Below are positions 8,451 through 12,492 of a stretch of DNA of 49,903 bases, piece after piece. Positions within the stretch are counted from its first letter, which is position 1. Each line of letters opens with the position of its first letter. The translations under genes and the position numbers were made by a program. The notes below the pieces were generated by a model, which was not told the origin of the DNA, ran no database searches, and worked only from the letters and a program-made list of their open reading frames with translations. The stretch is from an uncultured Candidatus Saccharibacteria bacterium (lineage in GTDB: Bacteria; Patescibacteriota; Minisyncoccia; JACQLN01), in NCBI GenBank assembly GCA_964365305.1, contig CAYIPG010000003.1:1-49903 (forward strand). The letters are read 5' to 3'.

Positions 8451-9812
8451 CTAATTCAATTCAAAAACCTCCCCCGCTTGCGGAACTCCTGCTTCCATCC
8501 CTAGATCGTTTTTAATCTTTCCGGCTAATACCGCGGCCGGTTTTTCTTCGCCTTGAACCACAAAAACCTTTTTAACATTTTTAATATGCCCGACCCATTC
8601 TAAGAGTCCGGCCTGATCGGCGTGGGCCGAATAGCCGCCAATGGCTTTTATCTGGGCCCGCACCGGAATGTTTTCTCTAAACATTTTAATTTCCTGCGCG
8701 CCGTCCAAAAGCCGCCGGCCCAGCGTGCCGCTAACTTGATAGCCAATAACCAACAGAGTTGATTTGGGATCGGGCAAATACCTGCGTTCATGATGCAAAA
8801 TTCGCCCCCCCTCCGACATGCCGCTGCCAGCCATGATTATTTTGGGCGGCGGCACATTGTTGATGGCCTTGGATGATTCGGTGGTTAAAGAAAATTCCAG
8901 TCCGGGAAAATTAAACAAATCGTCGCCGGATTTTATCAAGTAGGCCGCTTCCTTATTAAAATAATCTGGATATTTTTGATAAATCGCCGTGGCCTTGATA
9001 GCCAAAGGGCTGTCTATAAACACAGGAATTTTGGGAATTCGGCCCGATTCCGCCAGATTATTAAGTTCAAACAATAATTCCTGGGTGCGTTCCAAAGCAA
9101 AGGCCGGAATCATTAAAGCGCCGCCGTTGATAATGGTGTTTTCTATAACTTTCTTCAGTTTTTCTTGGCGTTGGCTCTTGTCTTCGTGCAAACGGTCGCC
9201 GTAAGCCGATTCCATCACAACAAAATCGGCCTCGCTTATAAATTCAGTCGGCCTTAACAACGGCGTGGGCGGGTTGCCTAGATCGCCCGAAAAAACAACT
9301 TTAATTTCTCTTGATTCTTCTTTCAAAAAAACTTCTATAATGGACGAGCCCAGAATATGGCCGGCATCGTTGAATTTGATTCTTATGTTTGGCGTAACTA
9401 TTATTTCTTCGTGATACTTTTTGCCGTGCGTTAATTTCCAAAGATTGATAATATCTTCTTCGGTGTATAATGGTTGTTCTTTTAAATCCTCGGCTTCGTC
9501 TTTTAGAATACGGACGCTATCGTCCAAAGAAATTCGAGCCAAATCTAGAGTGGGGTGAGTGGCAAAAACATCGCCCCGAAAACCGTCTTTATATAATTTA
9601 GGCAAACGGCCGATATGATCAATGTGGGCGTGGGTAATAAAAACGGCTTTAATTTCGGCGGGATTATAAGCAAAGGGTTTATAGTTTCCCCGCTCGGCAA
9701 AGCGGCCGCCCTGCGCCAAACCGCAGTCCACCATTATTTTAGCGCCGGCGCATTCTATAACATAATTGGCGCCGGTAACCTCGCCGGCCCCGCCGTAGAA
9801 AGTTAACTTCAT
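8451..9812 (-). CDS. MBL-fold beta-CASP ribonuclease
   Basis: THAHIDHIG, DAGHILGS, FSGDLG, MESAYGDR and YSAHAD motifs. Confidence 0.92.
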   Translation of the reverse strand: MKLTFYGGAGEVTGANYVIECAGAKIMVDCGLAQGGRFAERGNYKPFAYNPAEIKAVFITHAHIDHIGRLPKLYKDGFRGDVFATHPTLDLARISLDDSVRILKDEAEDLKEQPLYTEEDIINLWKLTHGKKYHEEIIVTPNIRIKFNDAGHILGSSIIEVFLKEESREIKVVFSGDLGNPPTPLLRPTEFISEADFVVMESAYGDRLHEDKSQRQEKLKKVIENTIINGGALMIPAFALERTQELLFELNNLAESGRIPKIPVFIDSPLAIKATAIYQKYPDYFNKEAAYLIKSGDDLFNFPGLEFSLTTESSKAINNVPPPKIIMAGSGMSEGGRILHHERRYLPDPKSTLLVIGYQVSGTLGRRLLDGAQEIKMFRENIPVRAQIKAIGGYSAHADQAGLLEWVGHIKNVKKVFVVQGEEKPAAVLAGKIKNDLGMEAGVPQAGEVFELN

Positions 9813-10432
9813 ATAAAATTATTTAATGTCGCCCATTTTTTTCTGACTATGCCCGGCCATTTTTTGTTTGATTTTTTCCAATCCGACAACCACGCGATTG
9901 TCTTCGGGTCTGACGGGTAGCCCGAGCCGAAATCGCCATATTTCTTTTTTAAAATTTTAACATATTTTTCCCGTTCTGTTTTAGCTAAAATGGAAGCCGC
10001 CGCCACTAAAACATTATGGCTATCCATTTTATTAGCGCCGGTTAATCTGGGTGAGTTGAAGCATAAAGCCGCGACAGAGTTGCAATAATTTTTTATACCC
10101 CGGCCACTGGCCGGCACATCTATATAAACGCGGTGAGGCAAGAATTGATTGATGAGTTGAGCCGAGAATTTAATTTCCAAATCATTGATAGAATATTTAT
10201 CTATGGCTGAAGGACCGACCTTCAGAATTTTGTAACTATGGGCGATTTTTTTAATATCTTTGGCTAATTGATCTCGTTTAGCCGAAAGAAGTAATTTGGA
10301 ATCATTAACTCCGATATCGTTTAATTGATCTATCAAGTGCTCTTCCTCCGGTATTAAAAAACCCGCCAAAAAAAGCGGGCCAATCACGCAACCCCGCCCG
10401 GCTTCGTCTATTCCAAGAACCAGATCAGCCAT
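9809..10432 (-). CDS. rnhB: Ribonuclease HII (archaeal/eukaryote-like C-terminus)
   Basis: GIDEAGRG, DSKLL, VAAASILAK, FGSGYPSDPKT; start placed at MADLVLG. Confidence 0.9.
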   Translation of the reverse strand: MADLVLGIDEAGRGCVIGPLFLAGFLIPEEEHLIDQLNDIGVNDSKLLLSAKRDQLAKDIKKIAHSYKILKVGPSAIDKYSINDLEIKFSAQLINQFLPHRVYIDVPASGRGIKNYCNSVAALCFNSPRLTGANKMDSHNVLVAAASILAKTEREKYVKILKKKYGDFGSGYPSDPKTIAWLSDWKKSNKKWPGIVRKKWATLNNFI

Positions 10433-10559
10433 ATCAGTATTATATATCATGAAAACAAGTTTTAGTTTTCACCAGCGAGGATTGTTTGAGTCCCGAGTTT
10501 ACGAGGGCGAGTTCCGGAGCCAGAAAACTAAAACTTGCCGTAATATATCAAAAATAAAA

Positions 10560-10785
10560 AATCCCCGAAGCGGTTTTCGCTTCGGGGATGCTCGGTTTAG
10601 GGCCGTGAGCTGGGCATTTATAAATAACTTTTACATTGTTGGAACATTCCTATAATCAGGGTTGCGGTTGAGGGGAGTTATCTCCTTCTCTGAATCCATC
10701 ATTTTTGCGTAAATACGCCTTTGATCTGCGTACTTCGCAGCAATGTCTGGACTCGGAAAAAGAGAGGATTGATTCAGTGTATGTT
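10560..10785 (-). ncRNA. Candidate ~225-nt structured small RNA (or sORF transcript)
   Basis: TTGACA-16-TATAAT promoter (10817-10790); hairpins CTGCG/CGCAG, GCGTA/TACGC, CTGAATC/GATTCAG; terminator ATCCCCGAAGCG..CGCTTCGGGGAT plus U-tract; no long minus-strand ORF. Confidence 0.45.
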
Positions 10786-10876
10786 ATCCATTATACACTA
10801 TCTATATATCTTGTCAAGTACTTGCCCCAAAATACCCCCAAAACCACTAAAAAATGGCGTAAATACGCTATTTTTG

Positions 10877-11064
10877 TGCCCTCGAGAGGACTCGAACCTC
10901 TACCACCTCCTTCGGAGGGAGGCGTGGCACTTGCCCCGTATAAATTTGTCTATTGTGTCTCCGGCGCGACTCGAACGCGCAACCTTCAGCTTCGGAGGCT
11001 GACGCTCTGTCCAATTGAGCTACGGAGACAAATTTTATTCGGGGTCCAGTTCAACTACGAGGGC
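10877..11064 (-). tRNA. Interrupted outer tRNA-Arg(CCG): 5' part 11064-11045, 3' part ~10926-10877
   Basis: 5' GCCCTCG-TA-GTTGAACTGGA; 3' CCTCC-CTCCGAA-GGAGG-TGGT-AGAGG-TTCGAGT-CCTCT-CGAGGGC-A; acceptor strands GCCCTCG/CGAGGGC pair perfectly across a ~120-nt insert. Confidence 0.7.
10956..11029 (-). tRNA. tRNA-Arg(CCG), intact, nested inside the outer tRNA
   Basis: GTCTCCG TA GCTC AATTGGACA GAGC G TCAGC CTCCGAA GCTGA AGGTT GCGCG TTCGAGT CGCGC CGGAGAC A: full cloverleaf, CCA not encoded. Confidence 0.95.
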
Positions 11065-11534
11065 TATGTGTGTCTATCGGCGACGACAAAAGCCCCAAAA
11101 CTAAAGGGCTTGATTTTAACCTCATAGCCGTTGCCGCGCACCATGCCGGTAACTTCTTTGATCATAGCCCGAGTGTCGCCGTTCTCGCCCACATCCACAT
11201 GAATTTCAAAATTAAATTTATTTTTTTCCAAGGCCTTATAAAGTTGGCCCGAAAAAGCCCCAGCCACCTCCAATGATTTTAATGTCTCGGTATAAATGCG
11301 ATCGCGTAACGACTTAAAATTATCGCGCTGATCGCGCGTCCAAAAATAACGGCCTCCGGCGCCCACTCGATGCACCACAATGGCGGTTATAAAATCGGTG
11401 CGGGTATAAACCTGCGAATCAGTGCCGATAACTATGTTGTAACTTCTTTTGAAGTCAGCGCGGACATAATCTTTAATATCGGCGATAACTTCGTCGGCGC
11501 TCATTCGGCCTTTGGTTGGACTGTTAAAATTCAT
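11064..11534 (-). CDS. YkuK/DUF458 family RNase H-like protein
   Basis: IVIGTDSQ, TAIVVHRVGAGGRYFW, EIHVDVGENG, AFVVADRH; start moved to MNFNSPTKG. Confidence 0.85.
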   Translation of the reverse strand: MNFNSPTKGRMSADEVIADIKDYVRADFKRSYNIVIGTDSQVYTRTDFITAIVVHRVGAGGRYFWTRDQRDNFKSLRDRIYTETLKSLEVAGAFSGQLYKALEKNKFNFEIHVDVGENGDTRAMIKEVTGMVRGNGYEVKIKPFSFGAFVVADRHT

Positions 11535-11670
11535 GCCAATTTTATTTATCTGCCTGACTGTCGTCAAGCAGACGAAGTGAGTAATTATAAAATTGAGCAC
11601 CCCGCAATATGCGGGGTAAGGTTTTCTAGACAAAATTTGTTCACTTCGTTCCAAATTTTGTAGAAAGCCC

Positions 11671-12492
11671 TTAAAACAATGTTGGTCGCTGATGATTAGA
11701 ACCAATCACCTTAGCGTCTAAAATTCGGTATAACTTAAAATGTCGCATGTCTTGGCGGGTGTGGCAATAGGCCTCTATGGTATCGCCTTTTATGGAATAT
11801 ATCTCTATATTGCGAACTTTTCGGGCATCCTCGCCATCTTCTGGTTTGGTGGAAACATAATCAATCTGAACAACCTGCTTATTTTGAAAGGCCTGGCTTA
11901 AAACCGCGCGAATACTGCCAACCCCGACGGCGCCGTCGGGGCCAACCGATTCTAAAGCGCCCCAACTAGCCGGCACCGCTTTTAAGCCGTCGTTTCTGGT
12001 CGCCACCATCAACGAACCATGCCGAAGACCATACTCATAAAGATCACGGGTTAGTTTTACATCCTGCAGACAATACTTTTTTATTTCTTCTATTTTGCCT
12101 TCGCGAAACCATTGCAACGCCTCCAAACCATGCGAGGTTTTTTGCTCGCCCAAAGTGCTTTGGCCCAAAGAGTCCAAACCAATTCTAAAACCCAAAACCT
12201 TTTCCAACTCGGCCATAATATCCAAAGTGGGCAGACCGGCCAAATCAATTTTCTTAAAATAGGGCTGTAAAACCGGGTAATCAAAATGTTTGATGTTAAA
12301 ACCGATAACCAATTCGGCTTTCGCCATTAGATCTTCCAGTTGGCTCAACTCGCTTTCTTCAAAAGCGTAGAATTTATCTTGAGCGTAATCATAAGCGCCC
12401 GCGATAGACACGCCCAGCATGTGGATGTTGCGGTAGCCGCCCACTTCGGCAAATTCTTTTTTGGTTTCAACATCAAAAACAAGTTTGTTCAT
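11671..12492 (-). CDS. RNase H-like (YprB/DnaQ-type) 3'-5' exonuclease with C-terminal WYL domain
   Basis: VFDVET, IGFNIKHFDYP, YCLQDV exonuclease motifs; IEAYCHTRQDMRHFKLYRI WYL motif. Confidence 0.8.
   Translation of the reverse strand: MNKLVFDVETKKEFAEVGGYRNIHMLGVSIAGAYDYAQDKFYAFEESELSQLEDLMAKAELVIGFNIKHFDYPVLQPYFKKIDLAGLPTLDIMAELEKVLGFRIGLDSLGQSTLGEQKTSHGLEALQWFREGKIEEIKKYCLQDVKLTRDLYEYGLRHGSLMVATRNDGLKAVPASWGALESVGPDGAVGVGSIRAVLSQAFQNKQVVQIDYVSTKPEDGEDARKVRNIEIYSIKGDTIEAYCHTRQDMRHFKLYRILDAKVIGSNHQRPTLF

Follow-up and report, generated by a model that had tools for sequence, protein, structure and literature searches.

A complete tRNA-Arg(CCG) gene within the D arm of a second tRNA-Arg(CCG) gene: a probable arm-bounded replacement cassette in a Candidatus Saccharibacteria genome

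Results

A tRNA gene nested within a tRNA gene

Our analysis of a 49,903-nucleotide (nt) stretch of DNA from an uncultured Candidatus Saccharibacteria bacterium (assembly GCA_964365305.1, contig CAYIPG010000003.1; the whole stretch is hereafter called the window) revealed that the minus strand at 11064-10877 carries a complete transfer RNA (tRNA) gene, tRNA-Arg(CCG), located between two pairing arms and within the D arm of another tRNA-Arg(CCG) gene of different sequence. This nested arrangement is real and no assembly artefact, and it probably arose by recent insertion of an arm-bounded tRNA replacement cassette, free of open reading frames (ORFs), into a resident tRNA-Arg(CCG) gene. A preliminary description of the sequence had suggested that a palindromic element disrupted the resident tRNA gene while supplying an isoacceptor, and this suggestion is supported by four lines of evidence: (i) an empty allele of the site; (ii) syntenic orthologues; (iii) decayed or resolved copies of the interrupted outer gene (here termed the shell); and (iv) the presence of the same arms elsewhere, around other complete tRNAs (here termed the cargo).

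Throughout, G000 denotes the source genome (663 kilobases in 55 contigs, 97% complete, with 34 tRNA genes and one transfer-messenger RNA [tmRNA]), other G numbers denote further genomes of the same class, L numbers are fetched loci, and X1, X5, X6, and X9 are DNA sequencing runs. The components of the nested locus are as follows.

11045..11064, minus strand: 5' piece of the outer tRNA-Arg(CCG), positions 1 to ~20, 20 nt (read directly from the sequence)
10926..11044, minus strand: whole insert, 119 nt, comprising left arm, inner tRNA, spacer, right arm, and 8-nt tail (skipped exactly by an X5 contig)
11030..11044, minus strand: left arm (leader), CCC-N5-AAATTT, 15 nt, abutting the inner tRNA (from the sequence; 15 of 15 nt identical in G006)
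10956..11029, minus strand: inner complete tRNA-Arg(CCG), 74 nt (ARAGORN; Rfam RF00005, 70.4 bits, model positions 1-71)
10934..10955, minus strand: spacer and right arm (trailer), AAATTT-N5-GGG, 22 nt (complementary to the left arm and to nt 1-4 of the inner tRNA)
10926..10933, minus strand: tail CAAGTGCC, 8 nt, part of the insert (inside the skipped 119 nt)
10877..10925, minus strand: 3' part of the outer tRNA-Arg(CCG), 49 nt (from the sequence; Rfam partial tRNA match of 26.6 bits, under the gathering score of 29)

More specifically, the outer 5' piece contains the acceptor strand GCCCTCG, positions 8-9, the D-stem strand GTTG, and the D loop through GGA, with its first base being the final base of the stop codon of the upstream gene. 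The outer 3' part contains the last two D-stem bases, position 26, a CCG anticodon arm, the T arm, the acceptor strand CGAGGGC, and discriminator A. The two outer acceptor strands can be read from the sequence to pair at 7 of 7 positions, as had been noted before, and the intact inner tRNA-Arg(CCG) at 11029-10956 was confirmed by both ARAGORN and Rfam. ARAGORN calls just this inner gene across the whole window, and it is the sole CCG isoacceptor found in G000, the other arginine tRNA anticodons of which are GCG, CCT, TCT, and TCG. Neither the inner nor the outer tRNA encodes CCA.

The arms form a perfect 10-nt inverted repeat that extends 4 nt into the inner acceptor stem, in agreement with the overlap with the first bases of the inner tRNA reported previously; with one A.A mismatch and one bulge, the repeat can be extended to CCCCG/CGGGG, i.e., ~19 nt in all. 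Folded as RNA, the 188-nt locus reaches -76.7 kcal/mol (z = -4.0; 0 of 200 shuffles were as stable), with the outer acceptor stem as well as the arm helix present in the predicted fold. The extent of the insert given in the preliminary description required adjustment. Placement of the insert in the D arm stood, but the insertion is not a clean one into the D loop, as it also reaches and disrupts the 3' strand of the D stem and replaces four target bases. Likewise, the start of the insert at 11044 was retained, whereas its other boundary was shifted from 10927 to 10926, so that the insert includes the tail and measures 119 nt. This insert contains no ORF, and Rfam yielded no family match to the outer parts or the arms, either in the window or in five related loci.

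Filled and empty forms of the site

Contigs of four runs were aligned to positions 10600-11400 of the window. The runs that cover the stretch, all of DNA and none of RNA, come from three studies, with X5 and X6 belonging to the same second study and X1 to a different one. Two X1 contigs, covering 10873-11002 and 10979-11151 with no differences, support both junctions of the nested form, and X6 contigs covering 10950-11047 and 11018-11400 support the 5' junction in the second study. An X5 contig (461 nt, depth 11), carrying 2 differing letters over 10600-10925, joins 10925 to 11045, thereby omitting the 119 nt, with 4 different letters between; on the minus strand, these letters are TACA. When the empty form was rebuilt from the 20-nt 5' piece, TACA, and the 49-nt 3' part, ARAGORN returned a canonical tRNA-Arg(CCG) with a D stem of 4 base pairs (bp), GTTG/CAAC. 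The insert therefore substitutes for four target bases, and there is no target-site duplication. In the filled allele, the outer gene is split by the insert and has lost these four bases; it is presumably dead. Filled and empty alleles of one site occur in close relatives (X5 versus X1, X6, and the window), as is the case for homing-type elements. The X5 empty-allele contig has zero listed differences within the outer halves, which points to a recent event.

In addition, a resolved form joining 10878 to 10955 was found in X9 on one contig (depth 4.5) from a more divergent relative, and gives a weak hint of this outcome. One further X1 contig has a loose end at window position 11038, where the inner tRNA and the left arm are followed by a different outer 5' piece; a similar cassette seems to reside in another shell in another member of the X1 community.

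The same locus in related genomes

The gene immediately upstream of the nested tRNA provides the syntenic anchor for comparison with relatives.

11067..11705, minus strand: upstream gene, PF04308, RNaseH_like (family match and synteny)

The same gene end precedes a tRNA-Arg(CCG) in G005, G006, G017, G301, G376, and G117. We checked relatives for an uninterrupted outer-type tRNA-Arg(CCG), and such a gene follows that gene end in G376, G301, and G017, all of other families of the class. The outer 5' piece is identical to the start of uninterrupted syntenic tRNA-Arg(CCG) genes from other families (L040, L006, and L031), and most genomes of the class carry a plain tRNA-Arg(CCG) gene at this locus. 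The inner-type tRNA stands alone at the syntenic place in G005 (same family as G000) and in G117; the first 20 nt of the G005 tRNA are similar to a shell 5' piece, the outcome that is expected from recombination between a shell piece and the cargo. In syntenic G006 (same family), the 5' piece, left arm, and inner tRNA are kept, and the right arm and the 3' shell are gone. Over these 111 nt (5' piece, arm, and inner tRNA), G000 and G006 are 95.5% identical, compared with 68-71% for the flanking genes. The shell of L184 is resolved on its 5' side, and the 3' shells of G040 and G052 are degenerate. By sequence comparison, the locus displays every stage (empty, filled, half-decayed, and resolved), and shells later decay or undergo resolution by recombination, after which the imported tRNA remains alone at the locus. 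Between the tRNA and the RNase HII gene, G006 carries two ORFs of 126 and 81 amino acids (aa) (L002:1733-2359), a region that is non-coding in G000.

Related arm-bounded cassettes in other genomes

The arms are of the type CCC-N5-AAATTT / AAATTT-N5-GGG, followed by CARG. A BLAST search of 401 genomes of the class with a 221-nt region as query retrieved further nested tRNA-Arg genes of the same layout in G125, G112, G139, G052, and G040, the cargo anticodon being CCG or GCG. CARG follows the arm in 6 of the 7 BLAST-retrieved cases (G000, G125, G112, G139, G040, and G052, but not G050). The long outer parts of G112 and G139 might have represented a large RNA, such as RNase P RNA or tmRNA, but this idea was dropped because the RNase P RNA match of G000 (91.4 bits, under the Rfam gathering score of 100) is located elsewhere in the genome and the tmRNA lies on C29. 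A strict version of the arm pattern was detected in 23 of the 401 genomes, at 28 places, and the reversed pattern in 0 of 401. In G000 itself, one arm-pattern match adjoins a tRNA, and two other matches have no adjoining tRNA.

To extend this comparison, a public genome collection was scanned with a pattern tying the right arm to a T loop, which yielded at least 116 loci; in at least 66 of these, the match begins within an ARAGORN tRNA. Some of these tRNA-internal matches are due to chance and come from other phyla, in which the gene that follows happens to be a further tRNA. The remainder are from Patescibacteria, in which same-type arms surround complete tRNAs, each lying within a broken tRNA of the same amino acid; named public records with such cassettes are nearly all from Patescibacteria (the candidate phyla radiation, CPR). 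Among the matches listed, de-duplication left at least 30 distinct cassettes for nine amino acids (10 Arg, 5 Val, 3 Ser, 3 Gly, 2 each for Ala, Phe, Leu, and Met, and 1 Ile), and three loci (L148, L149, and L108) show three-level nesting. Shell and cargo are cognate in G000, where both are Arg(CCG), as well as in the Val, Gly, Met, Ser, Phe, and Arg examples examined. The insertion is mostly in the anticodon loop for the non-arginine cassettes. A second pattern, for the arginine D-arm type, recovered eight further records labelled Patescibacteria and one labelled Bdellovibrionales, and all second-pattern cassettes bear the tail CARGYGCC ahead of the anticodon stem. The insert tail of G000, CAAGTGCC, is kept in this CARGYGCC form in other D-arm tRNA-Arg cassettes (L173, L140, L156, L181, L185, L187, L189, and L171). 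Decaying shells, together with shells within shells, argue that shells are not selectively kept.

We also compared the arms with one another. In a set of related sequences that were mostly retrieved by the arm motif itself, arm positions 4-9 (counted from the CCC/GGG end) were canonically paired at a fraction of 0.81, relative to 0.49 with shuffled partners, with 0 of 2000 shuffles reaching the observed value. Several pair types occur at each of these middle positions, which covary, and the arm ends are conserved. G.T and C.A counts in the arms, compared in order to separate selection on the RNA from selection on the DNA, are about equal and are blurred by register shifts. The covariation indicates that pairing is maintained, and nothing more. 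Widely spaced matching arms in the fetched loci enclosed no nuclease gene; long-distance arm pairs there represent separate cassettes or Russian dolls in the spacers of ribosomal RNA (rRNA) genes.

Some related structures were observed alongside these cassettes. Hairpins without a tRNA but with arm-like ends (CCCC...GGGG, sometimes then CAAG) occur in the anticodon or D loop of outer shells (L024:1637-1720, L034:1375-1460, L140:460-560, and L108:225-290). At L094:1-925 (minus strand of this locus), which belongs to a record labelled Doudnabacteria, the 16S-23S spacer tRNA-Ile(GAT) lies within layers of tRNA-Ile fragments and palindromes. Finally, at C38 ~3229 of G000 (minus strand), a trailer-like AAATTT-N-GGGCAAG is located beside the start of the 16S rRNA gene, which runs on the other strand; this may be due to chance. 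Our literature search retrieved no bacterial tRNA gene nested in a cognate tRNA gene; the supplements of PMC11893778 and PMC11270868 could list cases.

Alternative explanations for the nested locus

The preliminary description had also offered an excised intron as an explanation, whereby one transcript would yield both an excised inner tRNA and a religated outer tRNA-Arg(CCG). The intact outer halves with their 7/7 paired acceptor strands, the arm helix that would draw these halves together, and the tRNA-Arg(CCG) calls that ARAGORN returns after many artificial deletions of the insert all favor such splicing at the RNA level, but we consider it improbable given the following observations. PF01974 and PF01139 (EndA and RtcB) gave 0 matches in the 97%-complete G000, whereas control genomes were matched. 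There is no bulge-helix-bulge motif, as the 5-bp CCCCG/CGGGG helix at the junctions is separated from a longer helix by an A.A mismatch, without two 3-nt bulges around 4 bp. An Rfam cmscan of 10000-12000 (E values up to 10) detected no ribozyme, but only tRNA matches and chance hits, and a 119-nt insert is too short for a group I intron, for which about 200 nt or more are needed. Four canonical bases are absent from the filled allele, and no excision restores GTTG/CAAC (the best D stem has 3 of 4 pairs). Moreover, shells are decayed in relatives and stacked three deep elsewhere. The lack of an RtcB/EndA match and the lost bases that cannot be restored thus indicate a mobile replacement cassette rather than a spliced intron.

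An old, functional RNA architecture passed on vertically, in which shell and arms scaffold the processing or folding of the inner tRNA without any mobility, would account for arms that are conserved at the ends and covary in the middle and for a layout present in many families of the class. It appears quite improbable, however, when set against the near-identical strain that has a normal tRNA without the insert, the plain tRNA-Arg(CCG) at this locus in most class genomes, the occurrence of the strict arm pattern in just 23 of 401 genomes, and the loss of shells while the inner tRNA stays. As tRNA genes are common integration sites, with a partial tRNA beside a full tRNA being the usual scar, the outer pieces might also be what an integrase has left behind through attachment-site (att) duplication, or what deletions have left of a tandem duplication. 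This we hold to be very improbable: the outer pieces do not duplicate the inner tRNA but differ from it in all stems (acceptor, D, anticodon, and T), as the preliminary description had already argued; the 119-nt insert has neither an integrase nor direct repeats at its ends; and the two outer pieces complete each other to form a single tRNA. Repeats such as tRNA genes can mislead metagenome assemblers, but a chimera assembled from two tRNA-Arg genes is extremely improbable here: X1 contigs span both junctions without difference, X6 contigs from another study span the 5' junction, and the same architecture is present in independently assembled genomes.

Several observations weigh against insertion of a mobile replacement cassette. 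As judged by the arm pattern, G000 carries just one copy of the cassette, and there is no ORF in it. The empty allele is represented by one contig from one run that extends just 30 letters past the joint, and the unchanged outer halves fit a recent insertion but would equally fit a shell under selection. Conserved, covarying arms may reflect a function at the RNA level rather than mobility, and the sequences from which covariation was calculated are related and mostly motif-retrieved. ARAGORN, a permissive program to which we gave little weight in this test, called tRNA-Arg(CCG) in ~211 of 352 artificial deletions (422 output lines, two per call), such that a spliced product is conceivable on structure alone. 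Lastly, L140 alone among the D-arm Arg cassette loci has a nearby gene for a GIY-YIG nuclease, the family considered below.

A candidate nuclease family

G000 has three GIY-YIG matches, namely one long UvrC-like ORF and two single-domain ORFs, the latter located as follows.

G000 C4:42902-43147, plus strand: single-domain GIY-YIG ORF, 81 aa, 52 nt from tRNA-Gln(TTG)
G000 C29:2002-2277, plus strand: single-domain GIY-YIG ORF, 91 aa, 90 nt downstream of the tmRNA

By PDB sequence search, these small ORFs match UPF0213 proteins (1zg2 and 1ywl). The small GIY-YIG family was found in 95 of 121 sampled genomes of the class; a single genome may carry as many as 15 copies, and internal stops interrupt some of them. 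The 30 fetched GIY-YIG loci contain 32 copies, of which 15 have a tRNA or tmRNA gene no more than 200 nt away, and partial tRNA copies are present in 5 of the 30 loci. The order in L015 is a 5' copy of tRNA-Arg(CCG), a GC hairpin, a GIY-YIG ORF, and a complete tRNA-Arg(CCG); in L108, two GIY-YIG ORFs lie amid whole and partial tRNA-Asp genes, beside the three-level tRNA-Met cassette; and in L140, a GIY-YIG ORF ends 10 nt ahead of the D-arm Arg cassette. No HNH nuclease (PF01844 or PF13392) was matched in G000. From these sequence associations, we tentatively suggest that the small GIY-YIG family could be a reasonable candidate for the enzyme mobilizing the cassette. It is likewise conceivable, if rather doubtful at present, that the arms are the recognition hairpin of small GIY-YIG nucleases, which would make for a two-part mobile system, undescribed so far, of nucleases acting in trans and ORF-less tRNA cassettes.

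Between the tmRNA 3' end and the GIY-YIG ORF on C29, G000 also has a ~19-bp hairpin (C29:1911-1950) with ends CCCCG/CGGGG like those of the cassette arms, and no T run follows it.

Flanking features of the window

Just past the outer tRNA lies a short palindrome, and the next gene downstream of the tRNA locus is that of RNase HII.

10850..10875, minus strand: palindrome with 12-nt arms, followed by a T run (inverted-repeat search; failed the criteria of the terminator scan)

A promoter scan detected no promoter-like site between the PF04308 gene and the tRNA. The tRNA locus lies within a run of genes for nucleic-acid enzymes (window 8454-12492, minus strand), namely, an RNase_H/exonuclease with a WYL domain, the PF04308 RNaseH-like protein, RNase HII, and a beta-CASP metallo-beta-lactamase RNase. 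Within this run, ~200 nt (window 10561-10817, minus strand) are enclosed by a promoter of the perfect form TTGACA-16-TATAAT (10817-10790) on one side and by a strong terminator (10589-10561) on the other. Any ORF on the minus strand of this interval is shorter than 50 aa, and Rfam gave no match there. G005 shares a short block past this promoter; a small RNA or a small peptide gene is possible there.

Discussion

How the cassette may function and spread

The insert looks like a mobile replacement cassette, resembling a selfish element that replaces the gene it destroys; that it is mobile is suggested by the polymorphism of the site and by comparison with relatives. Since there is no promoter-like site between the upstream RNaseH-like gene and the tRNA, the two are likely to share one transcript that starts further upstream. 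The inner tRNA would then be freed by RNase P, 3' trimming, and CCA addition. The arm helix (~14-19 bp) may keep the fold of the inner tRNA separate from its look-alike shell, or it may instead be a site for DNA mobilization. More speculatively, the cassette might spread by a route akin to intronless homing, in which a site-specific nuclease cuts uninterrupted cognate tRNA genes and the break is then repaired by copying the cassette from a filled allele, for which the shell halves would provide the homology; the cargo might be spared from cutting through its differing D arm, and the multi-copy, single-domain GIY-YIG family of the class might supply the nuclease. Because cargo and target are cognate, homology-dependent repair is favored as the means of spread, and transposase-driven spread is less likely.

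Significance

tRNA genes are usually seen as stable and vertically inherited, and as interrupted solely by introns that are spliced out. The cassette described here would represent another way for selfish DNA to occupy an essential RNA gene, namely by supplying a working replacement rather than by self-splicing, and the event can be seen as a polymorphism in a natural groundwater population. If the class is general, it would (i) explain tRNA pseudo-halves and odd results of tRNA finders in Patescibacteria genomes; (ii) constitute a route to horizontal tRNA gene replacement in organisms with minimal genomes; and (iii) point to short hairpin repeats and small GIY-YIG nucleases as partners, a link that can be tested. 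Should the two-part system prove true, tRNA genes would be overwritten by imported cognate copies and would be horizontally exchangeable modules across Patescibacteria, with the Russian-doll scars being a record of successive invasions. For annotation, our findings serve as a warning that the outer halves are not to be called intron-containing tRNAs.

Comparison with known systems

Miniature inverted-repeat transposable elements (MITEs) and the palindromic elements of Rickettsia are, like the G000 cassette, short, ORF-less, bounded by inverted repeats, and found within functional genes. Terminal inverted repeats are indeed present here (10 nt perfect, ~19 nt with one mismatch and one bulge). 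In contrast to those elements, the G000 cassette is single-copy, shows no target-site duplication, and brings a functional gene like its target.

Spliced, split, and permuted tRNAs of archaea and eukaryotes (PMC4090602, PMC3978253) likewise have insertions at non-canonical places, as in the D arm here, and a helix formed by the flanks. However, the G000 locus differs from archaeal and eukaryal tRNA introns in having no bulge-helix-bulge and no EndA/RtcB match, and its insert holds a whole tRNA, the removal of which cannot restore the host tRNA. Group I introns in the anticodon loops of bacterial tRNA genes (PMC3984707) are similar in being potentially mobile intervening sequences; unlike these, the G000 insert has no Rfam ribozyme core, measures 119 nt, lies in the D arm, and contains a tRNA.

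Ssn proteins, which consist of a single GIY-YIG domain, cut single-stranded DNA at semi-palindromes (NTS/dRS3) with conserved flanking bases (PMC11893778). The likeness to our system lies in the ~90-aa single GIY-YIG domain and in short hairpin repeats with a conserved C right after the palindrome. In contrast to Ssn (clade cd10448), the G000 ORFs match UPF0213 by PDB search, and the repeat sequences differ; nor are the Ssn repeats reported as tRNA carriers, and the word 'tRNA' has 0 occurrences in that source (PMC11893778).

Insertion sequences in the rRNA genes of CPR bacteria, some of which encode LAGLIDADG or GIY-YIG proteins, share with the cassette the same group of organisms and the targeting of essential structural RNA genes, and some lack ORFs and are of no known intron type (PMC11270868). 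Those insertions are presumed either to be removed from the RNA or to be tolerated there, whereas in G000 the cargo copy replaces the host gene; the main text of that source has 0 occurrences of 'tRNA' (PMC11270868).

Finally, SegB of phage T4 is a free-standing homing endonuclease in a tRNA gene cluster that acts by intronless homing (PMC2330249). As in the model outlined above, a segment enters a homologous tRNA-gene region that is without it, and neither an intron nor splicing is involved. The nuclease in T4 is of the GIY-YIG type (PMC2330249), and a GIY-YIG family is the candidate for the G000 cassette. The mobile segment in G000 contains no nuclease gene, and ORF-bearing related cassettes are found in L015 and L108. 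In comparison with the T4 system (PMC2330249), the G000 cassette also lies inside a tRNA gene rather than between genes, has pairing arms, and brings a complete replacement of the gene that it breaks.

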